DNA of 64,000 nucleotides from Acidimicrobiia bacterium (GTDB lineage Bacteria > Actinomycetota > Acidimicrobiia > Spongiisociales > UBA5794): NCBI GenBank assembly GCA_030066875.1, contig JASJAS010000005.1, forward strand, positions 6,080 to 70,079, in the 5' to 3' direction. Position numbers and translations under genes: made by a program. Below are positions 7,568-30,337 of this stretch, one piece after another. Numbering within the stretch: position 1 is the first letter of the stretch; each line of letters starts with the position of its first letter. The notes under the pieces were generated by a model. The model was not told the origin of the DNA, made no database searches, and saw only the letters and a list, made by a program, of their open reading frames with translations.

Positions 7568-8538
7568 GACGAGCCTCCATCGGCCCAGACGTCGGTCAGG
7601 AGTACGGCCGGATCGGGTGGGGGAGCGTTCTTCGAGGCCTCGGTAGCCGCGTCCACCTCGGCGGCTGCCTTGGCTTCGATCTCGTCGAGCTTCGCCGGCT
7701 CGACCCCCAACGACAACAGGCGTTCCCGGTAGATGTCGATGGGATCGCGCTTCAGCCACTCCTCGACTTCCTCGTCGGGCCGGTACTTCCCCGGATCAGC
7801 CCTCGAGTGTCCTTTGTGCCGATAGGTGAGCGCTTCTATCAGAGAGGGGCCCTCACCGGCGCGGGCCCGCTGGTAGGCGGCTACCGCGACTTCGTAGACG
7901 GCATCGGCGTCATTTCCGTCGACGACGATCCCTTCGAGACCGTATGCGGAGGCCCGATCGGCGGCGGGATGCTCGACCGCGATCACGTCGCTGATCGCCG
8001 TGTATTCCATGTAGAGGTTGTTCTCACAGACGAACACCACCGGGAGATCCCAGACGGCGGCCATATTGAGCGACTCGTGAAACGCCCCGATGTTGGTGGT
8101 CCCATCTCCGAAGAAACACACGGAAACCTGATCCGTACCTCGCAACTGCGCCGCCCACGCCGCTCCTGCCGCCACCGGTAAGTGGGCTCCGACTATGGCG
8201 TACGAGCCCATCGCGCCCTTACTCACGTCGGTGAGATGCATCGAGCCGCCTTTGGCCTCGCAGATGCCGTTCGAACGTCCCATCAGTTCACCCATCAGGG
8301 CGTTCATGGGTGCGCCCCGCAAGAGTGTGTGGTTGTGACCGCGGTAGGTGCAATACGACATGTCGTCGGGCTGCATGGCGACCGCGAACCCAGCAGCCAC
8401 GGCTTCCTGGCCGAGGCCCAGGTGCGTGGTGCCCTTGACGAGTCCTTGCATGAACAGGTCGTAGGCGCGCTTCTCGAAGTAACGGGCGCGCACCATGCCG
8501 TCATACATTGCCAGCCTGATGTCTAGTGCTATCTCCAT
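7555..8538 (-). CDS. TPP-dependent 2-oxoacid/acetoin dehydrogenase E1 component, alpha subunit
   Basis: TPP-binding motif GDGTTNIGAFHESLNMAAVWDLPVVFVCENN. Confidence 0.85.
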   Translation of the reverse strand: MEIALDIRLAMYDGMVRARYFEKRAYDLFMQGLVKGTTHLGLGQEAVAAGFAVAMQPDDMSYCTYRGHNHTLLRGAPMNALMGELMGRSNGICEAKGGSMHLTDVSKGAMGSYAIVGAHLPVAAGAAWAAQLRGTDQVSVCFFGDGTTNIGAFHESLNMAAVWDLPVVFVCENNLYMEYTAISDVIAVEHPAADRASAYGLEGIVVDGNDADAVYEVAVAAYQRARAGEGPSLIEALTYRHKGHSRADPGKYRPDEEVEEWLKRDPIDIYRERLLSLGVEPAKLDEIEAKAAAEVDAATEASKNAPPPDPAVLLTDVWADGGSSWRN

Positions 8539-8671: not shown

Positions 8672-8687
8672 CAGTAATCGATTATCG
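8672..8687. promoter_or_regulatory. Operator-like site S4 (CAGTAATCGATTATCG) in a divergent intergenic region
   Basis: Contains TAATCGATTATCG. It lies between the E1-alpha start (8538, minus) and the UPF0261 start (8887, plus). Confidence 0.6.
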
Positions 8688-8886: not shown

Positions 8887-10137
8887 ATGCCCACTGTGGG
8901 CCTTCTGGGCGCTCTTGACACGAAAGGTGCAGAATACGCGTTTCTGCGCGATCGGATCGAAGGATCCGGGTGCGGCGTGATCATGATCAATGCCGGCGTC
9001 ATGGCTGATCCGGATTACCCCGTGGACTATTCACGAGAGGATGTCGCTGCGGCGGCGGGGGTCGACATAACTGCACTATTGGCTGCAGGAGACCGCGGTG
9101 CGGCCGTGACCCGCCAAGCCGAAGGAGCCACCGCGCTCGTCGTCCGCCTTTTCGAGGAGGGTCGCATCGACGGGCTGCTGGGCATGGGGGGGTCGGGTGG
9201 TACCACGCTGGTGAGTCAGGCGATGCGTGGGCTCCCGGTGGGGTTTCCCAAGCTGCTCGTTTCGACAATGGCATCGGGAGATACGTCTCCATATGTGGAT
9301 ACTTCCGACATCACGATGATGTATTCCGTCGTCGACATCGCGGGAATCAACGCCGTTTCCGCGCAGATCCTGACCAACGCGGCCGCCGCCATCACCGGCA
9401 TGGCTGTTGGCTACGAATCGGGCCGACCGGTTTCTCGAGGGCGACCCGCCGTGGGAGCCACCATGTACGGGACCACAACTCCGTGTGTGAGCACCGCAAA
9501 GCGGTGGCTCGAGGACGCCGGCTTCGAGGTGTTGGTCTTCCACGCCAACGGTCCCGGAGGTCGGGCGATGGAGGCGTTGATGCGAGACGGCCACATCGCG
9601 GCGGCTCTCGACATAACCACGACCGAACTAACAGACGAGCTAGCCGGGGGTACAACCACGGCCGGCCCCGACCGCCTCGAATTGGCCGGGTCGCTCGGGC
9701 TTCCGCAGGTGGTTTCGGTCGGCAGTGTGGAGCAGATCACGTTCTCCCCGCCGAGCGCAATCCCCGCAGAGTATGCAGACCGGCTGTCGTACGAACACAA
9801 CCAATCGGTCACCCTGATTCGGAGTGACGCCAAGGAGATGGCACGACTGGGCCGTGTGATGAGCGACAAGCTCAACGCGGCCAAGGGGCCGGTGTCTGTC
9901 TTCCTGCCACTACGAGGCACCTCAGAGTATGCGGTCGCCGGCGCTGTATTCCATGACCCTGAGGCGGACGAAGCTCTCTTCGAGTCTCTCCGGGTCAACC
10001 TCGATCCCGAGGTCGAGTTGATCGAGATGGACACCCACATCAACGATCCCGTCTTCGCGGTAGCGATGGCCGAGAAACTCGCCGAGCTGTTCGGTGATCT
10101 GGAAGGGACTGTCAACCCGAAGGGGTCGACACCATGA
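8887..10137 (+). CDS. UPF0261 family protein (Tm-1-like N-terminal nucleotide-binding module)
   Basis: The N-terminus MPTVGLLGALDTKGAEYAFLRDRI and the overall glycine-rich pattern fit UPF0261. Its stop overlaps the next gene as ATGA. Confidence 0.7.
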   Translation: MPTVGLLGALDTKGAEYAFLRDRIEGSGCGVIMINAGVMADPDYPVDYSREDVAAAAGVDITALLAAGDRGAAVTRQAEGATALVVRLFEEGRIDGLLGMGGSGGTTLVSQAMRGLPVGFPKLLVSTMASGDTSPYVDTSDITMMYSVVDIAGINAVSAQILTNAAAAITGMAVGYESGRPVSRGRPAVGATMYGTTTPCVSTAKRWLEDAGFEVLVFHANGPGGRAMEALMRDGHIAAALDITTTELTDELAGGTTTAGPDRLELAGSLGLPQVVSVGSVEQITFSPPSAIPAEYADRLSYEHNQSVTLIRSDAKEMARLGRVMSDKLNAAKGPVSVFLPLRGTSEYAVAGAVFHDPEADEALFESLRVNLDPEVELIEMDTHINDPVFAVAMAEKLAELFGDLEGTVNPKGSTP

Positions 10138-10994
10138 ACGGACGAGAGGCGCTCGCCAGGCTGCGCAAAACGGTCGCCGACGGCGGAGTGATCATCGGCT
10201 CGGGAGCGGGGACCGGCATCTCGGCCAAGCTAGCCGAGGCCGGCGGTGCCGACCTGATCATCGTCTACAACTCCGGTCGGTACCGGATGGCCGGTCGCGG
10301 CTCGCTTTCCGGCATGATGCCCTACGGCGACGCTAACGCCATCGTGCTCGACATGGCCGGCGAGGTTCTGCCCATCGTCGGCAACACACCGGTCCTGGCG
10401 GGCGTCTGCGGAACGGACCCGTTTCGAATCATGGGGAGCTTTCTCGACACCGTCGCCGCCGCCGGCTTTGTAGGTGTGCAGAACTTCCCGACGGTGGGGC
10501 TAATCGATGGGACCTTCCGACAGAACCTCGAAGAGACCGGAATCAGCTATGACCTCGAGGTGGCGATGATCAAGTCGGCGAGGGAGAAGGGCTTGCTCAC
10601 CGCACCTTACGTATTCGATGCTCGTCAGGCCGAAGCGATGACTGGTGCCGGAGCCGATCTGGTTGTCGTCCATGTTGGGCTGACGGTGTCCGGATCAATC
10701 GGCGCCCAGACGGCTCGCTCGATGGATGAGTCCATCGACATGATCCAGGAACTCGGGGATGCCGCACGCGCGGTCAGAGATGACGTTCTAGTCCTGTTTC
10801 ACGGCGGTCCGATTGCCGCCCCCGAGGACGTTGAACACGTACTCACCCGCACCACCGGAACCCATGGCTTCTTTGGCGCCTCGAGTGTTGAGCGTTTGCC
10901 GGTCGAGGCTGCGGTGACAGAAACGATGAAACAGTTCAAGAAAACAGCCAGGGGACGGCACACCTCTGGTGCCGGAAAGGAAGCACTCATATGA
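10134..10994 (+). CDS. Phosphoenolpyruvate hydrolase-like TIM-barrel protein (usual partner of UPF0261)
   Basis: GGADLIIVYNSGRYRMAGRGSL..GVQNFPTVGLIDG pattern. Translationally coupled to the UPF0261 gene. Confidence 0.7.
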   Translation: MNGREALARLRKTVADGGVIIGSGAGTGISAKLAEAGGADLIIVYNSGRYRMAGRGSLSGMMPYGDANAIVLDMAGEVLPIVGNTPVLAGVCGTDPFRIMGSFLDTVAAAGFVGVQNFPTVGLIDGTFRQNLEETGISYDLEVAMIKSAREKGLLTAPYVFDARQAEAMTGAGADLVVVHVGLTVSGSIGAQTARSMDESIDMIQELGDAARAVRDDVLVLFHGGPIAAPEDVEHVLTRTTGTHGFFGASSVERLPVEAAVTETMKQFKKTARGRHTSGAGKEALI

Positions 10995-11067
10995 CTGACG
11001 ACCAGCAAGTCCTCAGCGGCGAGGCGATCTCCTGTGAGTGCGGTGCCGAACGAGGAGGGAGAACGTC

Positions 11068-11772
11068 ATGACCCTTCCGACGGAACGCCGCTCCGATCCC
11101 GTCGCTCGCAATGTGCTGAGCGAGCAGGTCAAAGACCGCATCTTGCAGTGGATTCTCGAAGGAGAGCTGGCGCCCGGCTCACGCATCATCGAGACCAGGG
11201 TGGCCCGCGAACTCGGGGTCAGCCAAGCCCCGGTCCGCGAAGCGCTGCGTGACCTGACGACCCTGGGTGTTGTCGAGATGCAGCCCTATCGCGGCGCGAG
11301 CGTCCGACAGCCAAGCAAAACAGATCTAGTGGAGGCAATGGAGGTGCGCGCTGAACTGGAGGCGTTGGCCGCCCGCCAAGCCGCCACCAGGATGACGCAA
11401 GCGTGCCTTGACGAATTGCAGGACCTCATCGATGAGATGCACCGGCTGGCCGAGGCGGGAGACGCGCATGGTCACGCTCTCAACAACACCGCCTTCCACG
11501 GCACGGTTGTCCGGGCGTCCGGCAACAAGACGTTGTTGCGCATGTGGTCGATGCTGGAGCCCTATGCCAGGACCTATGTAACGGCGATGCTGCCTGGTAC
11601 CGACCTCGTGTGGCTGGGGGATCGTCATAGCGCGATCGTTGAGGCCCTCACGGCCGGTGATCCAGAACAGGCAGCAGAGACGATGCGAGTGCATGCCCGT
11701 GAAGCCGAGGAGCTGGTGCTGGCCATGGATGAAGCGGCGTTTGGTGGAGCGGAGGTCAACGCTGACCTCTAG
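11068..11772 (+). CDS. GntR-family transcriptional regulator with FCD (FadR C-terminal-like) domain
   Basis: Winged-HTH segment RIIETRVARELGVSQAPVREALRDL followed by a helical C-terminal domain. GGAGGGAG RBS precedes the ATG at 11068. Confidence 0.85.
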   Translation: MTLPTERRSDPVARNVLSEQVKDRILQWILEGELAPGSRIIETRVARELGVSQAPVREALRDLTTLGVVEMQPYRGASVRQPSKTDLVEAMEVRAELEALAARQAATRMTQACLDELQDLIDEMHRLAEAGDAHGHALNNTAFHGTVVRASGNKTLLRMWSMLEPYARTYVTAMLPGTDLVWLGDRHSAIVEALTAGDPEQAAETMRVHAREAEELVLAMDEAAFGGAEVNADL

Positions 11773-11865
11773 GTGAAGCTGAGAGTCCGGCCCGAACGTG
11801 TCCGGGCATTGACAAGTGAGAACGAAAGGCAGAGCCGCTCGGGCGGCTACAAAAAGGAGAAACGA

Positions 11866-12693
11866 ATGTTGCAGCTGTCAGAGGAGATGTCAGGCGGGAG
11901 TGCTCGACTCCGAGTCGACGTATACGGACCGGAGCCACGCGAGCACGTCCTCGAGGACATGAACTTCCTCAACTACCGGCTCGCCAAGGTGAACATCGAG
12001 CCCGAGGTGACCCTGCCCGAACCCGACATCGTCTGGCACCAGGAAGGTGATAAGTCCATCTCGTACGACGGCAAGCGGATGACCTTCGTTGGTGACTGGG
12101 CGGCCGGACCGCTGCAGAAGGTCGTGGTCACCATGCTGGCTCTCAAGATGGAAGCCGAGGGGCTCCATCCGTTCCACTCGGCGGCGGTCAACTATCGGGG
12201 CAAGACCATGCTGTTCCTCGGTGGCGAATCGAACCACGGCAAAAGCATGGGTCAGATCGAGGCCTGTCGTCGCGGCGGCTTGCTCGTCGCTACCGAGACG
12301 ACTGTGATTGACGAGGATGGCGTCGCCATCATGGGATCGGAAGATGTCTTCCTAAAGAAGCGCGCCGAGGGCACCGAACGGGCGGATAAGGCTGCACCGA
12401 ACAAAGGTGTCGAGAAGTTCTTCGGGTCGATGCCCACCTGGGACGACTTCGAAGGACCGACCAATATCGACCTCGTGATCGTCCCGGCGATCGACGGCAA
12501 CTTCGATCCCAGCACCGTCGAGATGGGCAAGTTCGAGGCCAGCTTCCAGACTCTGCACAGCTTGCAGAACTACTTCCTGCTGAACGAACTGCTTGCGGAG
12601 GGCCACGTCATGCCTATGGTCGATACCGAGGAGCTCAGGGCCAAGCGCGCCGAATACGTCAAGCGATTCGTTGCCCCCGGCCCTTCTTCATGA
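11866..12693 (+). CDS. Hypothetical P-loop protein with HPr-kinase C-terminal-like core
   Basis: HPFHSAAVNYRGKTMLFLGGESNHGKSMGQIEACRRGGLLVATETTVID mirrors the HprK layout (H-x-S/G-x-V .. G-x-S-x-x-GKS .. LVADD). AAGGAGA RBS precedes the ATG at 11866. Confidence 0.5.
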   Translation: MLQLSEEMSGGSARLRVDVYGPEPREHVLEDMNFLNYRLAKVNIEPEVTLPEPDIVWHQEGDKSISYDGKRMTFVGDWAAGPLQKVVVTMLALKMEAEGLHPFHSAAVNYRGKTMLFLGGESNHGKSMGQIEACRRGGLLVATETTVIDEDGVAIMGSEDVFLKKRAEGTERADKAAPNKGVEKFFGSMPTWDDFEGPTNIDLVIVPAIDGNFDPSTVEMGKFEASFQTLHSLQNYFLLNELLAEGHVMPMVDTEELRAKRAEYVKRFVAPGPSS

Positions 12694-12755
12694 TTCGGGC
12701 TGCCACGCCCCAGGTGCTGCTCGATGAAGTAGACAAGGTCTTCTGAGAGGTAACC

Positions 12756-13625
12756 ATGAACCGTTTTCAGTACGCCCGACCGGAGACGGTGGGCGAGGCC
12801 GTGGCCCTGCTGGAAGAGCATGGCGACGATGCACGCCTGCTCGCCGGCGGTACCGACCTGGTGATCGAACTGCGCAACCGATGGGTTGAGCCCAAGGTCG
12901 TCATCGACTTGAAGCGGATTCCCGACCTGGCGCCGGCAATCGTAGAGCGTGATGGATTCCTGTCGATCAGTGCTTCCACTGTGATGACCGATATCGCCGA
13001 GGATGAGCGGGTGCAACGGTACTTTCCGGCATTGGTCGAGTCGGCTGTGGTGGTCGGTTCGGTGCAGATACGGGCCCGGGCCACCATGGCAGGCAACATA
13101 TGCAACGGTTCTCCTGCGGCGGACACGGCACCACCATTGCTGGTGTACGACGCAGTCGTTGTAGTCGCGGGGTCGGACGGCGAGCGGCGGGTCCCCATCG
13201 ATGACTTCATCGTGGGCCCCGGCAAGACGGCATTGCAGCGCGGCGAGCTGGTGACCGCGATTGAACTGCCCATTCCGGAGCGCCCCTACGGTGCGGCATA
13301 TACACGCCTGACCCGGCGTCGCGGCACGGACCTCGCATCGATCACCTTGTGCGCCGGTGTCGACGCAGACGGGCAGGCTCGAATCGCCTACGGCAGTGTC
13401 GGCCCGAGGGCTTTCCTCGTCGAGGACGAATCCGGCATCCTCGGTGACTCAACCATCCCCTCTGAGGACAAGATTGATTCGCTCGACCAGATCTTTTACC
13501 GGGCTAGTCCATCCCTGAAATCATTGCGCGCCAGCCCCGACTATCGGCTGGCGATGCTGCGCGTGCTCGGGGCGCGCGCTCTGGAAACTGCGATTGGCCG
13601 GCTGACCAAGGAACTGGTCTCATGA
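12756..13625 (+). CDS. Mo-hydroxylase FAD-binding medium subunit (CoxM/XdhB-like)
   Basis: LLAGGTDLVIEL FAD-binding motif. Its stop overlaps the next gene as ATGA. Confidence 0.85.
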   Translation: MNRFQYARPETVGEAVALLEEHGDDARLLAGGTDLVIELRNRWVEPKVVIDLKRIPDLAPAIVERDGFLSISASTVMTDIAEDERVQRYFPALVESAVVVGSVQIRARATMAGNICNGSPAADTAPPLLVYDAVVVVAGSDGERRVPIDDFIVGPGKTALQRGELVTAIELPIPERPYGAAYTRLTRRRGTDLASITLCAGVDADGQARIAYGSVGPRAFLVEDESGILGDSTIPSEDKIDSLDQIFYRASPSLKSLRASPDYRLAMLRVLGARALETAIGRLTKELVS

Positions 13626-14098
13626 ACCGAACCCTCACTATCGAAACAACCATCAACGGTCGGCGACGGTCGCTGGATGTCGCGGTCAACCACACGCTGC
13701 TCGACGTGTTGCGCGACGACATCGATCTGACCGGAACCAAGGAATGCTGCGTCGTCGGCGAGTGCGGTGCCTGCACTGTGATCATCGACGGTCGGCCGAT
13801 GAACTCATGTTTGATGCTCGCCGTTGAAATCGACGGGTCAGAGGTCACGACGGTAGAAGGCCTGGAACTGGAGGAGGGTCTCAGCCCCCTGCAGGGCGCG
13901 TTCCTCGACGAAGGTGCCACGCAGTGTGGGTTCTGTATTCCTGGTCAGCTGATGGCGGCAACCGCGTTGTTGCAGCAGAACCCAGATCCGACGGTGGAGG
14001 AGATCCAGGAAGGCCTCGCCGGCAACTTGTGTCGCTGTGCCGGATACGAACAGATCACTAAGGCTGTGCTGGCCGCGGCAAGGGGGGTGAAGCAATGA
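13622..14098 (+). CDS. Mo-hydroxylase [2Fe-2S] small subunit (CoxS-like)
   Basis: Cys clusters ECGACTV, QCGFCIPG and CRCAGY. Confidence 0.9.
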   Translation: MNRTLTIETTINGRRRSLDVAVNHTLLDVLRDDIDLTGTKECCVVGECGACTVIIDGRPMNSCLMLAVEIDGSEVTTVEGLELEEGLSPLQGAFLDEGATQCGFCIPGQLMAATALLQQNPDPTVEEIQEGLAGNLCRCAGYEQITKAVLAAARGVKQ

Positions 14099-16338
14099 AT
14101 GCTGTCGGCAGTTCACCGCGCCGGGGCGGTGGCTATGGGCGGGTCACAGGCCATCAGGAATACCTGGCAGACATCAAGCTCCCCGACGCCCTTCATGTGA
14201 AGCTGGTGACATTGGAGTGCGCTCGCGCCAGGATCAACGCGATCGATTCGACGGAGGCCGAGCAAGTGCCCGGCGTGCACTTCGTCATGACCGCCGCCGA
14301 CCTCCCCGACCCGATGCCTCGCTTTGGTCCGCAATTCCAAGATCGGCCCGTTATTGCCGTTGGGGAGACCAAGTACCACGGCGAACCGGTTGCAGCCGTG
14401 GCGGCTGAGACCAAGGATGCCGCCGAAGAGGCTGCCCTCCTGGTCAAAGTCGACTACACGAAGCTGGAGGACGGCATCTTCAGCGTCGCTGACGCGCTTG
14501 CTCCGGACGCAGTCCTGGTTCAAGACCCGGCGTTGCGCGGTGCCAGCTCGTTTGCCCAAACGAACATCATTGACGAGAAGCACTTCGGCTGGGGTGACAT
14601 AGACGACCAGGAGGCCCACCTGGTCGTCGAGGATTCGTTCCAGTTCCCGATGGTGACTCACTTCGCCATCGAGCCTCACGGATTCATGGCTGCTCCCGAC
14701 GGCGACGGAATCGAGGTTTGGAGCACGATTCAACATCCGTACCTACTTCAGAAGATCATGGCCAAGATGCTCGACCTGCCGCTGTCCAAGGTCCGGGTCC
14801 ACGCACCGGATCCGGGCGGCGGATTCGGCGGCAAACAGATCCCCAAATTCGAGCCGCTAGTGGCGTTCATGGCGTTGCGCGCCGGCCGCCCGGTGCGGCT
14901 GGTGCTCAGCCTTGACGAGACCTTTCAGCAGGTGCGCCGCTCGTCGGCCGAGATCCGGGTCAGGGCCGGATTCACCGCCGAAGGGGTCTTCACCTTCATG
15001 GACATAGAAACCAACTTCTTGGTTGGTGCCTACGTTGACATTGCCGACCGGGTCGTTTCGAAGTCGAGCTACTCCGGGGCAGGGCCTTACCGCATCCCGG
15101 CCGTCAAGATCATCGGTAGAACGATCTTGTCCCACACCACACCATCGACCGCGTTCCGCGGGTTCGGGATCCCACAGATCGGCTGGGCGCGAGAGTCGCT
15201 CATCGACGAGGCGGCGCTGCAATTGGGTATCGACCGCCTACAGATTCGGCTACTCAACCTGGCTCGTTACAAAGAGCCGTTCATCCCGAGCGAGGAGGCC
15301 GATGGCGATTGGGAGCAGACCGTACGCACAGCGGCGAAACGAATCGGTTGGGGTGATCCGCTGCCGCCGAATCGGGGTCGCGGCATCGCAGTTGGCCTCA
15401 AATCAGGTCCGACTACTGGCCTGTCCTATTCAACCGTCCGCTTGCTCTACGACGGCAGCGCCATGGTGTACGCCGGAACCTCAGACATGGGCCAAGGTGC
15501 CCGTACCATCTTCGCCCAGATTACGGCCGAAGAACTCGGCGTCCCGCTGGATGACATCACCGTCGTCATGGGGGACACCTCTGTCGTTCCTTACGATCAG
15601 CAGACCTCGGCCAGCCGATCCTCGGTGCTGATGGGAACTGCTGTGCAGCGCGCCTGTTTCGAGATCCAGGGCAAGGTCCGGGCGATGGCGGCGAAGCTCT
15701 ACAACGTCGACGAAGGCGATATCAAGGTCGACCAGGGAAGACTCCTGCTGCCAGACCGGGAGTTCAGCGTCGTCGACGTCATGCAGGAGGCTCTCGCCCC
15801 GCTCGGAGGTGAGGTGATCGGCAATGGCGAAATGCGGAAGGACAAGGAACCGGATCATCCGTTGGGAGGCACGGCCGCATTCTTCGAGTTCAACTGCACC
15901 GCGTCTGAGGTCGAGGTCGACATGGAGACCGGGCATGTCACCTTGGTGAAACACGTCACGGTGGGCGACGTCGGCAAAGCGCTCAACCCATTGCAGGTGA
16001 CCATGCAAGACGACGGTGCTGCCATCATGGGCCTGGGACACACCCTGATGGAGCACTACATATTCGACAACGAAGGGCGGGTGCGGAACATCGGGGCGAT
16101 CGACTACCGCATCCTCACCAGCATGGATCTGCCGCTCGATCTACACAGCGAGAGCGTGGAGAACGCCGACGGTCCCGGTCCCTACGGGATCAAAGGCGTG
16201 TCGGAAGGAAGTCTGCTCGTCACTGCCCCAGCAGTAGGGGCCGCAGTGCGCGAAGCGACGGGCAAAATAATCCGAGACCTACCGCTCACCCCACAGCGGG
16301 TGTGGGAAGCACTTCAGGAGGACGAGAATGGATCCTGA
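14095..16338 (+). CDS. Mo-hydroxylase molybdopterin-binding large subunit (xanthine dehydrogenase/aldehyde oxidase family)
   Basis: 747 aa, with an ATGA overlap to the small subunit. Motifs GGGFGGK and GPYGIKGVSEGSLL. Confidence 0.9.
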   Translation: MNAVGSSPRRGGGYGRVTGHQEYLADIKLPDALHVKLVTLECARARINAIDSTEAEQVPGVHFVMTAADLPDPMPRFGPQFQDRPVIAVGETKYHGEPVAAVAAETKDAAEEAALLVKVDYTKLEDGIFSVADALAPDAVLVQDPALRGASSFAQTNIIDEKHFGWGDIDDQEAHLVVEDSFQFPMVTHFAIEPHGFMAAPDGDGIEVWSTIQHPYLLQKIMAKMLDLPLSKVRVHAPDPGGGFGGKQIPKFEPLVAFMALRAGRPVRLVLSLDETFQQVRRSSAEIRVRAGFTAEGVFTFMDIETNFLVGAYVDIADRVVSKSSYSGAGPYRIPAVKIIGRTILSHTTPSTAFRGFGIPQIGWARESLIDEAALQLGIDRLQIRLLNLARYKEPFIPSEEADGDWEQTVRTAAKRIGWGDPLPPNRGRGIAVGLKSGPTTGLSYSTVRLLYDGSAMVYAGTSDMGQGARTIFAQITAEELGVPLDDITVVMGDTSVVPYDQQTSASRSSVLMGTAVQRACFEIQGKVRAMAAKLYNVDEGDIKVDQGRLLLPDREFSVVDVMQEALAPLGGEVIGNGEMRKDKEPDHPLGGTAAFFEFNCTASEVEVDMETGHVTLVKHVTVGDVGKALNPLQVTMQDDGAAIMGLGHTLMEHYIFDNEGRVRNIGAIDYRILTSMDLPLDLHSESVENADGPGPYGIKGVSEGSLLVTAPAVGAAVREATGKIIRDLPLTPQRVWEALQEDENGS

Positions 16339-17218
16339 GAAGGAAGTCGGACCGGTCAGGGATATGCCTGCGGCGAAAGTCGTTGAGGCTGCCCAGTTTG
16401 TTAAAACGGGCAAGAGCTACTCGCTTTCGGTTCCCCGGTTTCCGGGGATGCCACTCTTCCCGGGGCATCCGCCGTTCCAGGTGGTCAACTACCGGACCCC
16501 GCCCGGGATCATTGCTGGCAACGTGGAACCGTGGGGCCCGCCCAACGAGGTCAACCTCGGCTACATGGCGGAGTACCTGATGGCCTGTTCGCATTCAGGT
16601 GCGCACATCGACGGGCTAGCGCACATGACCATTGGCGAGGACAACCATTGGTACGGCGGCGGGAACACAGCGGACCACCTCACCGACCACGGGCCAAACT
16701 TTGGCGATGCCGCGAAGCTCCCGGCGTTCTTTACCCGGGGGGTCTTGCTCGATCCTCCAACGTACCGTGGAGTTGACGCACTGCCTGCTCACGAGCCGGT
16801 GAGTGCCGACGAGCTGCAGGCGGTCGCAGCGGCGCAGGGTGTCGAAGTGAAGCCTTGGGATGTTGTGCTCATCAGGACCGGCTATCTCAAATACTGGCCA
16901 GATGCCGAGAGGATGAATGAGCATCTCACCGCCGGGCCCGACCTATCGGCGGCGGAATGGCTCCTAGAAAGCGGCGTTGTTGCCACCGGCACCGACACCG
17001 AGACCTACGAAGTAATGCCAACACCGGATCGCGGTGATCCGCCCAATCCGCAGCCGGTGCACACGAAGCTGCTCATCGAGAACGGTATCTATCTACTGGA
17101 GAGCATCTACCTCGAGGACATTGCCCGTGACAAGGTGTACGAGTTCCTGTTTGTGATGTTGCCGCTGAAGATCAAGGGGGCAACCGGCTCGATGGTGGAC
17201 CCGCTCGTGGTCATCTAG
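16328..17218 (+). CDS. Cyclase-family (kynurenine formamidase/isatin hydrolase-like) metal-dependent hydrolase
   Basis: HSGAHIDGLAHM matches the HxGxHxDxxxH cyclase-family motif. It overlaps the upstream gene by 11 nt. Confidence 0.75.
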   Translation: MDPEKEVGPVRDMPAAKVVEAAQFVKTGKSYSLSVPRFPGMPLFPGHPPFQVVNYRTPPGIIAGNVEPWGPPNEVNLGYMAEYLMACSHSGAHIDGLAHMTIGEDNHWYGGGNTADHLTDHGPNFGDAAKLPAFFTRGVLLDPPTYRGVDALPAHEPVSADELQAVAAAQGVEVKPWDVVLIRTGYLKYWPDAERMNEHLTAGPDLSAAEWLLESGVVATGTDTETYEVMPTPDRGDPPNPQPVHTKLLIENGIYLLESIYLEDIARDKVYEFLFVMLPLKIKGATGSMVDPLVVI

Positions 17219-17242
17219 CCGAGGAAGCAATAGGAGCACGGA

Positions 17243-18286
17243 ATGAAAGCTCTGGTTGTCACCGAGCCGAACGAATTCGCCATCGAAGAGCTGCCGATGC
17301 CGGTCGCTGGCGAAAACGAGGTCGTCGCACGCGTGCGTGCAGTCTCGATCTGCGGCACGGACGCGCACTTGATCGCCGGACACTATCCGAATTTCTGGCC
17401 GCCGAGTTTTCCCTTCACTCCGGGTCACGAATGGGCCGGCGAGTTGGTCGAGGTGAGTTCAGGCGCCGCCGATTTGGGCTGGAAGGTTGGCGATCGGGTG
17501 TGCGGTACCTCACATGATGCCTGCGGGTTCTGCCAGAAGTGTGTGGAGGGGCGCTACAACCTGTGCGAGAACTACGGCAACATGGCGGTCCATCGCCAGT
17601 ACGGCCATAACTATCAGGGCAGTTTCGCCGAGTTCGTGCTCCACGGTGTCAAGTCGATCTTTCGTCTTCCCGACGAGATGGACTTCGCGACCGGTGCGGT
17701 GATCGATCCAGCGTCGATAGCCCTGCACACGGCAAACCGCGGAGGAGTGCGGCCCGGGGATACGGCCGTTGTATTCGGACCAGGGCCGGTCGGTTTGTTG
17801 GTGGCCGATGCGTGTCGCATCCGCGGCGCCGCCCACGTTATTGTCGTCGGCCGCGGTCAGCGGCTCGAGCTGGCTGCGTCGATGGGCAACGAGGTGATCA
17901 ACTTCGAGAAGGTGAACCCGGTGGGAGAGATACTGGAGATCACCGACGGTCACGGTGCCGATGTCATCCTGGACTGCGCCGGCGTATCTGAGACGTTCCA
18001 GTGGTCAATTCCAGCGCTACGCAAAGGCGGTCGGATTGCCGCGGTCGGGATTCCCGTGCAACGGGTCGATCTCGACTTCCAGGAGCTCGTGCTCTACGAG
18101 AAGGAACTCGTCGGGGTGCGGGCGACCGCAGGGGAGATGCGTCACGTGTTACCGCTGGTCGCCGATGGCTCGATCCGGGCCAAGGAGCTGATCACGCATC
18201 GCTTCTCTCTCGATGAGTTTGCGGAGGCCCTGGCGACCTTCAACGAGCGTCGCGGCGGTGCCATGAAGGTGATTGTCGAACCGTGA
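17243..18286 (+). CDS. Zinc-dependent medium-chain alcohol/polyol dehydrogenase
   Basis: CGTDAHL, GHEWAG and the GPGPVGLL Rossmann motif. Confidence 0.85.
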   Translation: MKALVVTEPNEFAIEELPMPVAGENEVVARVRAVSICGTDAHLIAGHYPNFWPPSFPFTPGHEWAGELVEVSSGAADLGWKVGDRVCGTSHDACGFCQKCVEGRYNLCENYGNMAVHRQYGHNYQGSFAEFVLHGVKSIFRLPDEMDFATGAVIDPASIALHTANRGGVRPGDTAVVFGPGPVGLLVADACRIRGAAHVIVVGRGQRLELAASMGNEVINFEKVNPVGEILEITDGHGADVILDCAGVSETFQWSIPALRKGGRIAAVGIPVQRVDLDFQELVLYEKELVGVRATAGEMRHVLPLVADGSIRAKELITHRFSLDEFAEALATFNERRGGAMKVIVEP

Positions 18287-18753
18287 GAATCCTGGTTCTT
18301 TGCACCGGGAACATCGGTCGTTCGCCGCTGGCAGAAGTGATGTTGCGCAAGGCGCTGGCGAGCGGTCTTGGCGTCGAGGACGCAGAGTTGGCGGATCGCG
18401 GATTTGTCGTGACCTCTGCGGGAATCGCCGCACCCGAAGGTCATCCCGCATCGCGCCGCAGCATCGCGGTAGCCGCCGGTCGGGGGCTCGACCTGAGCAA
18501 TCACAGCGCCACTCAGCTGACCGCGCTGGCTGTGGCTGCGGCCGACCGCATCTACTGCATGGACGGGGGCCAGCTGGCGGCAGTGAAGGCAATCGATCCT
18601 GCAGCGGCTTCGAAGACCGGGTTGATCGCAGGGGAGGGGATCGAAATACCCGACCCCCACTACCAGGACGACGAGTTCTTCTGGCGGGTTGCCCAACAGG
18701 TCGAAGCGGCCGCGCTGAGCCGGGCTGCAGAGCTTCTCGAACAGGTCTCGTAG
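18283..18753 (+). CDS. Low-molecular-weight protein-tyrosine-phosphatase family protein
   Basis: CX5R(S) loop LCTGNIGRS and the downstream IPDP Asp loop. Its start overlaps the ADH stop as GTGA. Confidence 0.8.
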   Translation: MRILVLCTGNIGRSPLAEVMLRKALASGLGVEDAELADRGFVVTSAGIAAPEGHPASRRSIAVAAGRGLDLSNHSATQLTALAVAAADRIYCMDGGQLAAVKAIDPAAASKTGLIAGEGIEIPDPHYQDDEFFWRVAQQVEAAALSRAAELLEQVS

Positions 18754-18778: not shown

Positions 18779-18807
18779 TTGACTCGGTTGTTTGGGACGG
18801 CGATAAT
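18779..18807 (+). promoter_or_regulatory. Promoter candidate TTGACT-17-GATAAT
   Basis: Near-consensus hexamers with 17-nt spacing. The -10 ends 2 nt before operator site S5. Confidence 0.5.
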
Positions 18808-18809
18808 TC

Positions 18810-18825
18810 ACATAATCGATTATCG
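18810..18825. promoter_or_regulatory. Operator-like site S5 (ACATAATCGATTATCG)
   Basis: Contains ATAATCGATTATCG. It covers the predicted transcription start, 15 bp upstream of the GTG at 18840. An extra half-site-like CGATAAT lies at 18801-18807. Confidence 0.65.
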
Positions 18826-18839
18826 AGGATGGAGACACC

Positions 18840-20984
18840 GTGACGTTTGCCTACGCGTTCGACTACTCGCATGGGTTGACCCTGCCTGAAGTTGCCTCGC
18901 TGATTGGGGGGAAGGCGGCAAACCTCGGTGTGATGTCGCGAGAGTTGGGGCTACCTGTGCCTCCCGGATTCGCAATCAGCACGACGGCTTGCAAGCTCTA
19001 TCTCGAGAACGGCTGGCCCTACGGGCTCGACAGCGAGATCAATGATCAGATGAGCCGGCTCGAGAAGACGGTGGGTCGTGGATTCGGCGATCCCAATGAT
19101 CCTCTGCTGCTCAGCATTAGGTCGGGTGCGCCGGTGTCGATGCCGGGAATGATGGACACCATCCTCAACCTCGGCCTCAACGATGAAACCGCCGCTGCAC
19201 TCGAGAAGGTCACGAGCGATCCGAGTTTTGTGACCGCTTGCCGGGCTCGTTTTGAAGAGACCTATCTGGACATCGTTGGCGCTGTAGTTCCGGACGATCC
19301 ATGGTTGCAGCTGCGCGGAGCGATCGAAGCTGTGTTCCGCTCATGGAATAGTGATCGAGCCCGCAGCTACCGCGCCCGTGAGGGAATCGCGGATGACCTC
19401 GGTACCGGCGTCATTATCCAGACGATGGTGTTCGGGAACCGCGGAGAGGACTCGGCTACCGGGGTCCTCTTCACGAGGAATCCCGCCACCGGCGAGGACG
19501 TGCTCTACGGAGATCTGATGTTCAACGCCCAGGGCGAAGACGTTGTGGCCGGTACGCATCAGACAGAGCCGATAGCAGTTCTCGACCAAAGAATGCCCAA
19601 GATCGCAGCGGAACTGAGGGCTTACGCCGCGATGCTGGAGCGCCACTACTCCGACGTGTGTGACATCGAATTCACCATCGAGCAGGGTCGTCTGTGGATG
19701 CTGCAGACCCGGATAGGCAAGCGCAGCCCGCAGGCGGCGCTACGAATTGCAGTTGAAATGGCCGAGGACGACGAGTTTCCGCTAGATAGGGCGGAGGCCG
19801 TTGCCCGGGTCGCCCACCACCTGGCCGACCCGCCGGTGGCGCCGGCCGAGCGGACGGCGGATGCAGTAGCCGCCGCAGTCGGCCTGGGCGCATCACCTGG
19901 GATCGCAGTCGGTGAGATCGCGACGACACCCGAAGCCGCGGTGATCATGGCCGAGGCCGGCAAGGATGTGCTGCTGGTCCGTCGGGAAACCTCTCCGGAT
20001 GATGTACACGGCATGGCCCGGTCGGCTGGGATCTTGACCACCACCGGCGGCCTTGCCAGTCACGCTGCGGTCGTTGCTCGCGGTTGGGGCATCCCGGCGG
20101 TTGTCGGCGCCGCTGCCGTCGAGGTCGTCGACGATGCGGTCACGATCGACGGAGACCTCTTCGAATCAGGAGAGGTACTTACTATCGACGGAGGCACCGG
20201 CGAAGTGTTTGTCGGAGCCATCACCAGCGGGGCGGAGATCGTCCCCGAAGCGAGCACCCTGTTGGCCTGGGCAGAACAGCATGGAATCGAGATTGAGGCG
20301 GAATCACGGGAACCGGGAGAAGCGATGGGCGAGACGTTTGAAGGCTCAGACATAAGTCGAGAAGACATCATCCACGTATTGCTGATCAAGGGATTCGTCG
20401 TACTCGACGACCTTGCGCACATCCTCTTCGGCGACTCGGAAGCGATCGGCCGAGAGCTGGACGAGATCGTTGCGGACGGGCTTGCTGAGTTGCTTGGCGG
20501 GAGTGCGCTCGCCGGGATGTTCCAGCTGACCGAGGACGGGAAGGCTGTCGGAGCCGAGAGGGTCGCTGCAGACCGCGAGCAATGGGGTCTGGAGAACGCC
20601 GTGCAGGCGCTCGACGATCTGCTCCCGCTCGATCTGCGGATGAAGGAGATAATGACGGGCTGGCAGCTGCGGGAAGTGGAGGGCCAGCAGGTAATCAATG
20701 ATCACAGCGACGAAGCCCACGATGCCGCCATCCTGGCGGACTTCGGAGCCCTCCATGTGGACGCCGGAGTGTGGCTGGGTTCACTTGCCGAAGGGCTGCC
20801 GCGCCTTGAGTCTTACGTCGCCCGCCTCGATCGAGCCGCCGGGCTGGTCGATGAAGGCAATACCGACTATCTGGCATCACCGCGCCTCGACAGCTATCAC
20901 AACGTGTGGTTCGAACTACACGAAGACTTGATTCTGCTGGCAGACCGCACCCGCGAGGAAGAAGTGGCCGCCGGCCGGGCCTAG
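18840..20984 (+). CDS. Truncated pyruvate,phosphate dikinase-like protein: ATP-grasp N-domain plus swivel His domain plus a roughly 245-aa unassigned C-terminal region, with no PEP/pyruvate TIM barrel
   Basis: GGKAANLG and PPGFAIST (PPDK N-terminal type). The phosphohistidine motif TTTGGLASHAAVVARGWGIPAVVG has its His at codon 408. From about 20250 the sequence lacks the PEP-utilizer C-terminal motifs. Confidence 0.8.
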   Translation: MTFAYAFDYSHGLTLPEVASLIGGKAANLGVMSRELGLPVPPGFAISTTACKLYLENGWPYGLDSEINDQMSRLEKTVGRGFGDPNDPLLLSIRSGAPVSMPGMMDTILNLGLNDETAAALEKVTSDPSFVTACRARFEETYLDIVGAVVPDDPWLQLRGAIEAVFRSWNSDRARSYRAREGIADDLGTGVIIQTMVFGNRGEDSATGVLFTRNPATGEDVLYGDLMFNAQGEDVVAGTHQTEPIAVLDQRMPKIAAELRAYAAMLERHYSDVCDIEFTIEQGRLWMLQTRIGKRSPQAALRIAVEMAEDDEFPLDRAEAVARVAHHLADPPVAPAERTADAVAAAVGLGASPGIAVGEIATTPEAAVIMAEAGKDVLLVRRETSPDDVHGMARSAGILTTTGGLASHAAVVARGWGIPAVVGAAAVEVVDDAVTIDGDLFESGEVLTIDGGTGEVFVGAITSGAEIVPEASTLLAWAEQHGIEIEAESREPGEAMGETFEGSDISREDIIHVLLIKGFVVLDDLAHILFGDSEAIGRELDEIVADGLAELLGGSALAGMFQLTEDGKAVGAERVAADREQWGLENAVQALDDLLPLDLRMKEIMTGWQLREVEGQQVINDHSDEAHDAAILADFGALHVDAGVWLGSLAEGLPRLESYVARLDRAAGLVDEGNTDYLASPRLDSYHNVWFELHEDLILLADRTREEEVAAGRA

Positions 20985-21009: not shown

Positions 21010-21483
21010 ATGCCTGACCCAAACGAGACATCGGCCGAGGACTATTTCGATCGCAGGGAGGGCGGCCGTAGCGAACGCAGCGGCTCGATCACTCACATGG
21101 ACGATCTGGCCAGCTATGAGATCGCGGCAGGTTTGTTCTTCCGCCCCATGTTTGCCGAGAACGTCTCATTGAACTTCGTCACGTTCCCTCCGAATAGCGG
21201 CTTCCCAACACACGTCCATCCCGAGGAGCAAATCAGCATCGTGCGGGAAGGCGAGATGGAATTCACCGTCGGCGATGTCACCCGAATGGTTCGGCCGGGT
21301 GATGTCGTCCACATGCCTCCGGACGTCCCCCACTCGGGAAGGACTTTCGACAGCAGCTGCCGGCTGATCGACGTATTCGCCCCGAGCCGCTCCGGGATTC
21401 GCGACGTTATCGCGGCTGCCAATCCGGTGCGTGCCGCCGAGGTCGACCGGTGGTGGTTCGACGAGAACGAGGTTGTCGACTAA
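21010..21483 (+). CDS. Cupin-domain protein
   Basis: FPTHVHPEEQISIVREGEMEF..VHMPPDVPHS is the cupin two-motif pattern. The true start may be an internal Met. Confidence 0.7.
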   Translation: MPDPNETSAEDYFDRREGGRSERSGSITHMDDLASYEIAAGLFFRPMFAENVSLNFVTFPPNSGFPTHVHPEEQISIVREGEMEFTVGDVTRMVRPGDVVHMPPDVPHSGRTFDSSCRLIDVFAPSRSGIRDVIAAANPVRAAEVDRWWFDENEVVD

Positions 21484-28071: not shown

Positions 28072-29022
28072 CTACCTATGCGCCGCCAGGAACCCTTTGA
28101 CCGCGCTCTCGACATGGGGGGCAGAGATCCCGTATTTGTCGAGGAGCGCATCGTTTGGCCCGGACTCGCCGAAGACGTCCTGGAGCCCGTGTCGTTTCAT
28201 CGGCAGGGGTGAGTTCTCGGCAAGCGCCTCGGCGATCGCTCCACCAAGACCGCCGACGATCGTATGCTCCTCGCTGGTCATCACCAGGCCCGTCTTTTCG
28301 GCCGCAGCGACCACGGCATCGACGTCGAGCGGCTTGATCGTCGGCACGTGCACCAGATGGACATCGATCCCGTCTGCGGCGAGTTTCTCACTGGCCTCGA
28401 AGGCGCGGGCAGTCTGGGTACCGGTGGCAAACAACGTCAGGTCGCTTCCTTCGCGCACCGTGACCAGCTTGCCCAGCTCGAACTTGTAGTCCTCATCCAT
28501 AAGGATCGGCGTGTTGGGACGTGTCAGCCGGAAGTAGACCGGGCCTTCGTATTCGATGATTGCTTCGAGGGCGGTCCGAGTTTCCACTTCGTCGACCGGG
28601 GCGACAACGGTCATGTGCGCCATGGCCCGCATGATCGAAACGTCATCGAACATCAGGTGGGTCTTGCCCGTCATCCCTGCCAGCAGCCCGGCGTAGCCGC
28701 CCATCATCTTGACGTTGGCGTTGGGTTGGGCGATCAGCACCCGGATCGAGTCATGGGCCCGCGAGACGATGAAGCAGCTAAAGGTGCTGACGATGGGGAT
28801 CAAACCCAGCGTGGCCATGCCAGCCGCCATCCCCAGCATGTTCATTTCGGTGATGCCCATCTGGAAGAAGCGATCTGGGTAGGCCTTCTCGAAGATGTCG
28901 GTCCTTGTGGAGCTTCCGGTGTCACCATCGAGGACGACAATGCGATCGTTGGTAGCCGCCAATTCGGTGATCGTCTCGCCAAACGCAACCCGGAGCGCCT
29001 TGCCTGGTGCCAGCGTCGTCAT
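28072..29022 (-). CDS. Transketolase-like protein, C-terminal (pyrimidine-binding) subunit
   Basis: FQMGITEMNMLGMAAGMA motif. Its start overlaps the stop of the N-terminal subunit gene. Confidence 0.85.
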   Translation of the reverse strand: MTTLAPGKALRVAFGETITELAATNDRIVVLDGDTGSSTRTDIFEKAYPDRFFQMGITEMNMLGMAAGMATLGLIPIVSTFSCFIVSRAHDSIRVLIAQPNANVKMMGGYAGLLAGMTGKTHLMFDDVSIMRAMAHMTVVAPVDEVETRTALEAIIEYEGPVYFRLTRPNTPILMDEDYKFELGKLVTVREGSDLTLFATGTQTARAFEASEKLAADGIDVHLVHVPTIKPLDVDAVVAAAEKTGLVMTSEEHTIVGGLGGAIAEALAENSPLPMKRHGLQDVFGESGPNDALLDKYGISAPHVESAVKGFLAAHR

Positions 29023-29885
29023 TCTGCACCCCCTTCACCTAGTTCCTCCATCGCTTGGGCAAACTCCTCGTCGGTCGGCACCTTGCTGTGCCACTTGTAG
29101 TTGCCCTCCATGTACGAGACACCCTTGCCCTTGACGGTGTGTGCCACGATCGCCACAGGAACCCCGCTCACCTCTTTGGCCGCAGCGAGCGTGCTGAGAA
29201 TCTCGGGGATGTTGTGCCCATCCATCTCCATGGTGTGCCAGCCAAATGCACGCCAACGGTCGGCGAGTTGGGATTCGGTGTACGGCGTGATCCGCTCTTC
29301 AACCGATGAGCCCGTCCACCCGAACTGTTGGAGCTTGTTGTGGTCGATGATGGCAATGATGTTGTCGAGCTTGTAGCGGGCTGCGACGTGGGCACCCTCC
29401 CACACCACTCCCTCGTTGCACTCTCCGTCGCCAAGCATCACATAGGTGGTGAAGTCACGCCCGGCGGCACGGCCGCCCAGTGCGATCCCCAGCGCACCGG
29501 CGAAACCGAGACCCAGCGAACCCGATGACATATCGATTCCCGGGGTCACCGTCATGTCGGGATGACCCTGCAGGCGGGAGTCGATGGCGTCGAATGTGAG
29601 CAGCTCTTCGACCGGGAAGAAGCCGCGCAGCGCCAACATCGTGTACAGCGCAATCGAGCTATGACCTTTGGACAGGACAAATCGATCGCGGTCGGGCCAT
29701 TCGGGCTCCTCGGGGCGAACGTTCATTACCCCGAAGTACAGAGCAGCCAGCATCTCAGCCGCTGAGTAGGGACCACCGACGTGACCGCCGCCGGCATGCT
29801 TGACCGCCTCGAGGATGCGGACCCGGGCTTGCCGGGCGTACTCCGCCATGTCCTCCGGCGTGTATGTCATTGTTGCTTGGGTCAT
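29019..29885 (-). CDS. Transketolase-like protein, N-terminal (TPP-binding) subunit
   Basis: GGGHVGGPYSAAEMLAALY and GDGECNEG motifs. GAGGAGGA RBS precedes the ATG at 29885. Confidence 0.85.
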   Translation of the reverse strand: MTQATMTYTPEDMAEYARQARVRILEAVKHAGGGHVGGPYSAAEMLAALYFGVMNVRPEEPEWPDRDRFVLSKGHSSIALYTMLALRGFFPVEELLTFDAIDSRLQGHPDMTVTPGIDMSSGSLGLGFAGALGIALGGRAAGRDFTTYVMLGDGECNEGVVWEGAHVAARYKLDNIIAIIDHNKLQQFGWTGSSVEERITPYTESQLADRWRAFGWHTMEMDGHNIPEILSTLAAAKEVSGVPVAIVAHTVKGKGVSYMEGNYKWHSKVPTDEEFAQAMEELGEGGAE

Positions 29886-29910
29886 GAATGCTGTCCTCCT
29901 CGGATGAGCT

Positions 29911-30276
29911 CTAGTCCTCTTCGTACGAGCCCGGAACAACCGGGGGAGAGAACGACGTGACCATCGTCAGCGGCTCGTCACCGTCATTCACGGTTTGATG
30001 ATGAAGGCCGATCGGGATGTAGACCACCGTGCCCGGCTCGAGATCCACCGTGTTGAGAGGGGAGACGAGCTTGCCCGTGCCCGAGACGATGTAGATGACT
30101 TCCTCTTGGGTGGGATGGACATGACCTTCGGGGGCTGAACCGGCAGGGAACTCGGAGAAGCCGACGGTGATGTTCTTGGACCCGGTAACCGACGGTCCGA
30201 CGTAGTGAAGCCAGCTTCGACCCGGCAAGTCGAAGACCTCGGCCTTTTCCTTTTTGACGGCCTTGAGTGGTTCCAC
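29911..30276 (-). CDS. Cupin-domain protein
   Basis: GHVHPTQEEVIYIVSGTG..VVYIPIGLHH cupin motifs. The GTG at 30276 is preceded by AGGAGG. The ORF-track ATG at 30321 would lie inside operator site S6. Confidence 0.7.
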   Translation of the reverse strand: MEPLKAVKKEKAEVFDLPGRSWLHYVGPSVTGSKNITVGFSEFPAGSAPEGHVHPTQEEVIYIVSGTGKLVSPLNTVDLEPGTVVYIPIGLHHQTVNDGDEPLTMVTSFSPPVVPGSYEED

Positions 30277-30314: not shown

Positions 30315-30330
30315 AGATCATCGATTATCG
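30315..30330. promoter_or_regulatory. Operator-like site S6 (plus strand AGATCATCGATTATCG)
   Basis: Contains ATCGATTATCG. It lies 39 bp upstream of the minus-strand GTG at 30276 and just downstream of the minus-strand promoter candidate. Confidence 0.6.
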
Positions 30331-30337
30331 AGTATCT

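Follow-up and report, generated by a model that had tools for sequence, protein, structure and literature searches.

We analyzed a 64,000-nt stretch of an Acidimicrobiia genome (hereafter the window; GenBank assembly GCA_030066875.1, contig JASJAS010000005.1, positions 6,080 to 70,079) and concentrated on the gene at 18840–20984 on its forward strand, which encodes a protein of 714 amino acids (aa). This protein is a PPDK (pyruvate, phosphate dikinase)-derived ATP-grasp plus swivel phosphohistidine module without the phosphoenolpyruvate (PEP)/pyruvate-binding barrel. Judging from homology and gene order, the open reading frame (ORF) very probably represents a VadK-type enzyme fused in frame to a homologue of the Rv1126c family, i.e. 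of the operonic partner of VadK in Mycobacterium tuberculosis. New here is the fused form of VadK in a new genomic context; the VadK kind of enzyme itself has already been described. The explanation that best accounts for the findings as a whole, and which we hold with modest confidence, is that the fused protein works in a split ATP-dependent phosphotransfer enzyme together with a 593-aa protein also encoded in the window. The gene and its parts are:

18840–20984, forward strand: probable VadK-type barrel-less dikinase fused to an Rv1126c-like module, 714-aa ORF (ORF, Pfam, NCBIfam, 791 same-length homologues)
18840–19961, forward strand: ATP-grasp nucleotide-binding domain (PPDK_N) and linker, residues 1–374 (PF01326, E 7e-49)
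19962–20201, forward strand: swivel phosphohistidine domain (PEP-utilizers mobile domain), residues 375–454 (PF00391, E 5e-21)
20232–20351, forward strand: inter-domain linker, residues 465–504 (TIGR01828 alignment to residue 493; junction alignment and DNA)
20352–20567, forward strand: predicted acidic winged-helix domain, residues 505–576 (AlphaFold2 model, weak Foldseek and PDB profile matches, junction alignment)
20568–20981, forward strand: predicted helical bundle with beta-hairpin, residues 577–714 (AlphaFold2 model with a predicted local distance difference test score, pLDDT, of 94.7; invariant columns in 79 sequences)

The reading frame is single and uninterrupted and begins with a GTG codon. 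In NCBIfam, the short 'PPDK' model NF004531 aligns over residues 20–471 and scores 483 bits (cut-off 456), while the score for TIGR01828, the model of canonical PPDK, stays at 520 bits, below its cut-off of 843, and the alignment ends at residue 493. Because the canonical PPDK of the same genome also passes NF004531 (525 bits), this model alone is not discriminating. In Pfam, residues 470–714 have no match at all, and PEP-utilizers_C (PF02896), the family of the barrel, is absent from the entire protein. Residues of the ATP-grasp domain and others, among them G23, K25, R94, S95, G96 and H408, are invariant in 24 homologues. The codon of the predicted catalytic histidine, His408, lies at 20061–20063 within GGLASHAAVVARGWG, and its motif aligns with the mycobacterial VadK motif GGAASHAAVVSRELG. 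The original prediction, made from the letters of the sequence, had placed the gene with M. tuberculosis PpdK among the short PPDK relatives that lack the barrel and had quoted the motifs GGKAANLG, PPGFAIST and GGLASHAAV with His408; all three are present, and the assignment to this type is borne out by Pfam and NCBIfam. With canonical PPDK the protein shares homologous ATP-grasp, swivel-His and inter-domain linker parts (47% identity to the genome's own PPDK), but it differs in the missing PF02896 TIM barrel, in the low TIGR01828 score and in an alanine in place of the threonine that precedes Ser-His.

The architecture is genuine. Using the C-terminal 240 residues as a query we retrieved 791 proteins (E ≤ 1e-3), which carry the labels Acidimicrobiia, Actinobacteria or 'bacterium' and come from metagenome-assembled genomes; nearly all of them are 707–725 aa long, have the same Pfam content and thus share the architecture of about 712 aa. 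The C-terminal part is conserved to the same degree as the rest of the protein in the 24 homologues. We could confirm the C-terminal domain in 476 stretches of species-representative genomes, and all counts of fused loci given below refer to the best 80 loci of these 476. The fused architecture is found in 75 of the 80, three are split by a frame change just upstream and two are cut by contig ends; the frameshifts in the three related loci only divide the same architecture. A sequencing frameshift or misassembly that conceals a canonical PEP/pyruvate barrel, which the original prediction had named as a possible objection, is thus a practically negligible explanation: hundreds of full-length homologues from many sources carry the same C-terminal domain, barrel motifs occur in no alternative frame, and the genome's own canonical PPDK lies elsewhere, on contig C139 (1146 bits on TIGR01828; a second PPDK is partial). 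The intact ORF, the absence of PF02896 and the 791 homologues of like architecture led us to reject a hidden barrel, and since a canonical PPDK exists elsewhere in the genome, the gene at 18840–20984 is an additional paralogue.

What the C-terminal domain is becomes apparent from its stand-alone relatives. A profile search of 1.84 billion cluster representatives gave 1908 matches; among the best 150 of these, 93 are of stand-alone size (≤260 aa) and 39 are fused to VadK. Mycobacterial stand-alone members typically have 198–204 aa and are annotated as 'MarR family transcriptional regulator' or 'hypothetical'; 'winged helix DNA-binding protein' is another annotation given to stand-alone members. 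We sampled 80 stand-alone loci, mostly from Mycobacterium and also from Mycolicibacterium, Nocardia and Pseudonocardia. In 69 of them a VadK-like (Rv1127c-type) gene lies directly upstream on the same strand, and contig ends account for at least four of the 11 loci without one. These neighbours are 41–49% identical to residues 21–465 of the 714-aa protein. At the junction of the two genes the stop and start codons most often overlap by 4 nt (22 loci); in 6 more loci the figure is 8 nt. The protein of the window is collinear with a mycobacterial VadK followed by its partner, the Met1 of which aligns at residue 505; the tail of the mycobacterial VadK is about 40 aa longer. The homology of the domain and the synteny at the position of Rv1126c (69/80) therefore argue that the gene would be a natural fusion of VadK with an Rv1126c-like protein. 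Hence the earlier description of the C-terminal ~245 aa as a region of unknown type in place of the barrel stands in part: the region does match no PEP-utilizers_C model and lacks PEP/pyruvate-binding motifs, as had been claimed, but it is a homologue of a separate family of ~200 aa rather than an orphan substitute for the barrel.

Rv1127c, formerly PpdK, has been characterized as VadK: derived from PPDK but without the barrel, it autophosphorylates on His422, and M. tuberculosis requires it both to grow on propionate and cholesterol and to be virulent (Pascoe et al., EMBO Rep 2026, PMC13400623). VadK pulls down PrpC and PrpD and tunes flux through the methylcitrate cycle; the methylcitrate genes are reported not to be under its transcriptional control (PMC13400623). 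VadK was soluble when co-expressed with its 'operonic partner Rv1126c', and separating the two took 2 M NaCl; the paper gives Rv1126c no function (PMC13400623). Naming M. tuberculosis PpdK as the example of a short PPDK-like protein was therefore right as to type, but outdated, since Rv1127c is now known as an autophosphorylating regulatory kinase. The protein described here resembles VadK (PMC13400623) in its ATP-grasp and swivel-His domains without a barrel, in the A-S-H-A-A-V-V motif around the histidine, in its score above the NF004531 cut-off together with the sequence identity given above, and in that the partner family corresponds to its C-terminal 210 residues. In contrast to VadK and Rv1126c, which in mycobacteria come from two genes with overlapping stop and start codons, it is a single polypeptide.

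At the junction, residues 465–493 can still be aligned to the inter-domain linker of PPDK, and residues 494–504 are variable and acidic. Within this variable part we noted a Shine-Dalgarno-like GGGAG (20315–20319) five bases 5' of an in-frame ATG (Met496, 20325–20327). Met496 is located nine codons ahead of the aligned Met1 of the stand-alone partner and is not conserved in homologues; the two elements could be a relic of an earlier gene start, or an internal start.

To describe the C-terminal region, for which profile searches and structure prediction had been suggested, we built an AlphaFold2 model of residues 500–714 on 79 locus-derived sequences (pLDDT 95.2; predicted template modelling score, pTM, 0.90). 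In this model a winged helix leads into long helices with one beta-hairpin. Searching the PDB with Foldseek, only winged helices of the MarR, MntR and IdeR type were matched, over ~75 residues and weakly (E ~0.02–0.1), and a PDB profile search agrees with these weak matches. The helical bundle modelled alone has no meaningful fold match in the PDB by Foldseek (best E 0.76, generic four-helix bundles, template modelling score <0.6). Pfam and NCBIfam hold no curated family for the domain or for its stand-alone relatives; HVO_A0261_N of Pfam is weakly matched in 32 of the 79 members, and MarR or MarR_2 in 2–4 of 79 at E 0.008–0.05, below the thresholds. The likeness to MarR, MntR and IdeR is confined to the winged-helix fold, while the domain differs from them in its acidic surface, the absence of MarR-type dimerization helices, another C-terminal bundle and scores below threshold. 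The winged helix has an isoelectric point (pI) of 4.15 and a charge of −11 (median pI 4.6 over the 79 members), and neither the 24-homologue nor the 79-sequence alignment contains a conserved basic residue in its recognition helix or wing, which argues against DNA binding. Invariant positions of the bundle in the 79 sequences are D598, K602, T606, W608, Q609, N620, H622, D628, R662, S685 and H687, as well as W690-F-E-L-H-E695 and R705; the C-terminal tail AAGRA is conserved.

We then surveyed the same phylum with an even sample of 401 genomes and found the domain in 40 of them, for which 37 loci were fetched. A VadK-like gene is present within 4 kb in 17 of the 37, in four different arrangements: fused, kinase before partner, partner before kinase, and divergent. 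Six more loci adjoin a more divergent barrel-less kinase with PPDK_N and mobile domains, so that in total 23 of 37 loci have a barrel-less PPDK_N plus mobile-domain kinase fused or adjacent. With its fusions to other enzymes (see below) also taken into account, the domain is a somewhat promiscuous module whose main partner is the barrel-less dikinase. Two side observations concern stand-alone copies: in L171, L175, L178, L185, L188, L189, L190 and L200 an Rv1126c-like gene stands directly 5' of dapA/RNase J with no PPDK-like kinase within 4 kb, and genes for AMP-binding enzymes lie near stand-alone copies in the Actinomycetota loci L179, L180, L182, L184, L196 and L197. In an unrooted maximum-likelihood tree of the domain, 45 of the 46 fused sequences form one clade (support 100/99), which spans Chloroflexota (Limnocylindria), Dormibacterota and Acidimicrobiia and in which the Acidimicrobiia group of the window is nested among Chloroflexota. 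The fused protein of L183 is placed apart from this clade on a long branch. The clade of the split mycobacterial partners falls within the same well-supported larger group and is among the nearest relatives of the fused clade. This topology fits a single main fusion, after which the fused gene spread from phylum to phylum; we claim no direction.

The genomic context of the fusion gene in the window consists of a molybdenum (Mo)-hydroxylase cluster upstream of it (11038–18286, forward strand) and a second swivel-His protein. To gauge conservation, we searched the 80 fused loci by targeted tblastn with the genes of the window as queries:

2980–4761, forward strand: 593-aa protein with an RPH/PigC/PRK08296-like substrate-type domain and a C-terminal swivel-His domain, candidate second subunit (Pfam, NCBIfam and PDB similarity)
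11038–11772, forward strand: GntR/FCD regulator (homologue in 23/80 loci)
11773–12693, forward strand: uncharacterized 306-aa protein (homologue in 24/80 loci, 65–75% identical)
12756–13625, forward strand: Mo-hydroxylase FAD subunit (homologue in 50/80 loci)
about 13622–14095, forward strand: Mo-hydroxylase 2Fe-2S subunit (Pfam/NCBIfam)
14095–16338, forward strand: Mo-hydroxylase large subunit (homologue in 49/80 loci)
16328–17218, forward strand: cyclase-family protein (homologue in 20/80 loci)
17243–18286, forward strand: zinc-dependent alcohol dehydrogenase (homologue in 28/80 loci)

In about 50 of the 80 loci the genes of the cluster are found, with order and strand mostly preserved and the fusion gene at the end. 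The common order is the 593-aa swivel-His protein, GntR, the 306-aa protein, the Mo-hydroxylase, in part the cyclase and alcohol dehydrogenase, and then the fusion; in many loci the fusion gene follows immediately after the large subunit of the Mo-hydroxylase. According to NCBIfam and Pfam, the Mo enzyme is an unassigned three-subunit member of the xanthine-dehydrogenase/4-hydroxybenzoyl-CoA-reductase family. For the 306-aa protein between the GntR gene and the FAD subunit, there is no match in Pfam, NCBIfam or PDB.

The 593-aa protein has a PF00391 domain at residues 517–587, and no ATP-grasp is found in it by Pfam, NCBIfam and PDB searches. In its N-terminal part it can be aligned with the substrate-binding region of rifampin phosphotransferase (RPH), PigC/RedH and PRK08296 proteins. 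The gene is present in a single copy in the genome, and its true start may be near 3004. Homologues with 51–64% identity occur in the cluster of other genomes, heading or flanking it: we found one within the flank in 15 fused loci, and just past the flank in 5 of 5 further genomes. Of five fused genomes whose flank has no Mo cluster, four encode a homologue as well (9/10 tested overall). In rare cases, the modules are joined. P0230 (1256 aa) and P0201 (1049 aa, N-terminally shorter) consist of a 593-type homologue (28–35% identity, E 7e-25 to 4e-30) followed by a complete VadK-plus-partner unit (44–47% identity over >720 residues), and in P0209, P0232 and P0225 a 593-type protein is joined directly to the partner domain.

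Immediately around the fusion gene we find three further elements:

18283–18753, forward strand: low-molecular-weight phosphatase-family gene (LMWPc), directly upstream (PF01451, E 2e-23; homologue in 1/80 loci, L006)
18779–18823, forward strand: promoter-like TTGACT-17-GATAAT (18779–18807; 10/12 matches) and 12-bp palindrome ATAATCGATTAT (18812–18823)
21010–21483, forward strand: Cupin_2 gene, directly downstream (PF07883, E 5e-16; homologue in 1/80 loci, L006)

The phosphatase-family and cupin genes were rejected as core functional partners, as they are conserved in the closest relative L006 only. The original prediction was correct in noting that a cupin gene follows; the conserved context, however, is the Mo cluster with the 593-aa protein. 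It had also singled out the promoter-plus-operator arrangement ahead of the gene as the best in the window. This remark holds: both elements are present in the 86-nt upstream region, where the palindrome ATAATCGATTAT is perfect, and the operator is common to several genes. The promoter call by itself, like the promoter count, is not above shuffle expectation. Allowing up to 2 mismatches, we count 9 copies of the palindrome in the window (0.38 expected by chance), at 1534–1552, 2708–2719 (preceding the 593-aa gene), 4879–4890, 8674–8685, 18812–18823, 30317–30335 and 36100–36111. The sites are always intergenic and 5' of catabolic genes: upstream of a gfo-like gene, the 593-aa gene, an aldehyde dehydrogenase and the fusion gene, between divergent E1 and UPF0261 genes, and at two more locations, around 30.3 kb and 36.1 kb. 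An exact copy of ATAATCGATTAT just 5' of the fusion gene is present in L006 and L007, two other Acidimicrobiia genomes. These sites mark a candidate regulon, and the GntR/FCD protein (11038–11772) might perhaps be the binder of the palindrome. As side observations, a UPF0261 (Tm-1-like) gene and a PEP_hydrolase-like TIM-barrel gene overlap at 8887–10994 of the window, and this pair occurs within 7 kb of the fusion gene in 5–7 of the 80 loci (L010, L016, L030, L033, L053, L069, L071). The window also contains two separate sets of transketolase/E1-type thiamine-diphosphate enzyme subunits on the reverse strand, one at 6593–8538 beside the operator at 8674 and one at 28072–29939 beside the operator pair at 30317–30335.

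Taking the proteins and their context together, we infer that the 714-aa protein is most likely the ATP-charging subunit of a multi-part phosphotransfer enzyme. The ATP-grasp domain would use ATP to phosphorylate His408, as M. tuberculosis VadK does with His422, and the swivel domain would carry the phosphoryl group to an acceptor site outside the 714-aa protein, with the Rv1126c-like module as a docking or acceptor-presenting part. We propose this mechanism by analogy and tentatively, at somewhat less than even confidence. The 593-aa protein would supply the substrate site and a second His carrier, and the two proteins might then form a split, phenylphosphate-synthase-like phosphotransferase for an intermediate of the Mo-hydroxylase catabolic pathway. 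Phenylphosphate synthase is, by analogy, the closest precedent for such a mechanism: its beta subunit binds ATP and charges a histidine on the alpha subunit, the reaction is stimulated by a gamma subunit of 24 kDa, and the genes stand beside those of the Mo-hydroxylase family. The proposed system would resemble it in a separate ATP-binding part, a separate His-carrying substrate protein, a third module and Mo-hydroxylase-family neighbours; the architectures are compatible, and the genes co-occur and are sometimes fused. Unlike in phenylphosphate synthase, the ATP-grasp protein here has its own swivel His, and its third module is a winged helix with a helical bundle instead of CBS domains. RPH, PigC/RedH and PRK08296 provide a second comparison. 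The 593-aa protein matches their substrate-binding and C-terminal swivel-His part, with scores far below the equivalog cut-offs, and triple fusions of the P0230 type rebuild an RPH-like set of modules; RPH differs in that ATP-grasp, substrate and His domains are in one chain and in another order, without an Rv1126c-like module. In its widest form the proposal reads that the 593-aa protein would join the VadK and Rv1126c-like modules in a three-part ATP-driven phosphohistidine relay. In Chloroflexota and Acidimicrobiia this relay would phosphorylate, and so activate, a small-molecule intermediate of a Mo-hydroxylase catabolic pathway, and the mycobacterial pair would be a reduced, re-purposed version of it. 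We regard this form as rather doubtful.

Several findings weigh against a dedicated phosphotransferase of this kind. Eight Acidimicrobiia copies of the domain lie upstream of dapA and an RNase J gene with no kinase nearby, and the domain shares a chain with an AMP-binding (acyl-CoA-synthetase-type) enzyme in P0268 and with a HAD hydrolase in P0261; these kinase-free loci and fusions speak more for a general adaptor than for a dedicated subunit. In five mycobacterial genomes that have the split pair, our search found no homologue of the 593-aa protein (0/5), and the Mo cluster was not found in the mycobacterial loci, therefore the core pair must be able to work alone. In the window the 593-aa gene is 14 kb away from the fusion gene, in a separate operon, and the N-terminal part of P0230 is just 28% identical to the 593-aa protein. 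Furthermore, the fusion brings along a swivel His, which leaves unexplained why a second His carrier would be needed. The assignment of the C-terminal domain to the Rv1126c family is taken from the synteny in many mycobacteria and from the wording of the VadK paper. The biochemistry is that of M. tuberculosis VadK, by analogy with which the roles suggested here were assigned, and the published role of that enzyme is to regulate enzymes of the methylcitrate cycle via protein binding (PMC13400623).

This last point leads to the main rival, i.e. that the protein is a regulatory kinase as in M. tuberculosis, which in its phosphorylated state binds and tunes metabolic enzymes, perhaps the Mo-hydroxylase, with the Rv1126c-like module as a protein–protein adaptor. 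The pull-down of PrpC and PrpD and the tuning of flux without transcriptional effects (PMC13400623) speak for it, as do the promiscuity of the partner domain, which is fused to differing types of enzyme, the position of the fusion gene right after the Mo-hydroxylase large subunit in many loci, and the acidic winged helix, which suits protein binding. It is weakened because no match to the MmgE/PrpD family was detected in the window's genome (81% complete). Moreover, regulation by protein binding leaves the tight link to, and the triple fusions with, the RPH/PigC-like substrate-plus-His protein unexplained; we consider it fairly unlikely. The Mo-hydroxylase cluster and second swivel-His protein set this genome apart from the mycobacterial loci and genomes examined, in which neither was found. 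Less likely again is that the Rv1126c-like module is itself the acceptor, be it as a catalytic (small-molecule or metal) replacement of the barrel or by phosphorylation on an invariant His or Asp, independently of the 593-aa protein. Its position where the barrel would be, behind a linker that retains homology to that of PPDK, would agree with this, and so would the dense set of invariant polar residues (H622, H687, H694, D598, D628, E692, E695, R705), the invariant C-terminal tail and a mycobacterial pair that works without the 593-aa protein; yet neither structure nor sequence comparison ties the module to a protein whose active site is known, and it is also found far from any kinase. Finally, the annotations of the stand-alone members as MarR-family regulator or winged helix DNA-binding protein, the weak matches to MarR, MntR and IdeR and the operator in front of the gene might suggest a one-component transcription factor, whose MarR-like DNA-binding domain is switched by the attached kinase. 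We consider this highly improbable: the strongly acidic winged helix without conserved basic residues makes a DNA-binding role unlikely, no curated MarR model reaches its threshold, VadK is reported not to regulate the methylcitrate genes transcriptionally (PMC13400623), and the cluster's GntR/FCD regulator would be the more natural binder of the palindrome. A split phosphotransfer enzyme of the fused protein and the 593-aa protein remains the explanation we favor.

VadK, described in 2025–26, is a PPDK-derived kinase that M. tuberculosis needs for growth on host lipids and for its virulence. Hundreds of environmental bacteria carry natural fusions of such a kinase with an Rv1126c-like module. 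In the classical Rosetta-stone sense this is evidence that the kinase and Rv1126c work as a single unit, and through the rare triple fusions the evidence reaches a third component, the substrate-type swivel-His protein. For two widespread families the current annotations, 'pyruvate, phosphate dikinase' and 'MarR family regulator', are misleading and are corrected here. Through the fusions, the partner and the acceptor of VadK become directly testable questions: whether Rv1126c is needed for VadK function, whether a second His protein or a small molecule receives the phosphate, and which substrate the Mo-hydroxylase cluster acts on can all be addressed now. If the three-part relay holds true, Rv1126c would be the missing functional partner of a tuberculosis virulence kinase.

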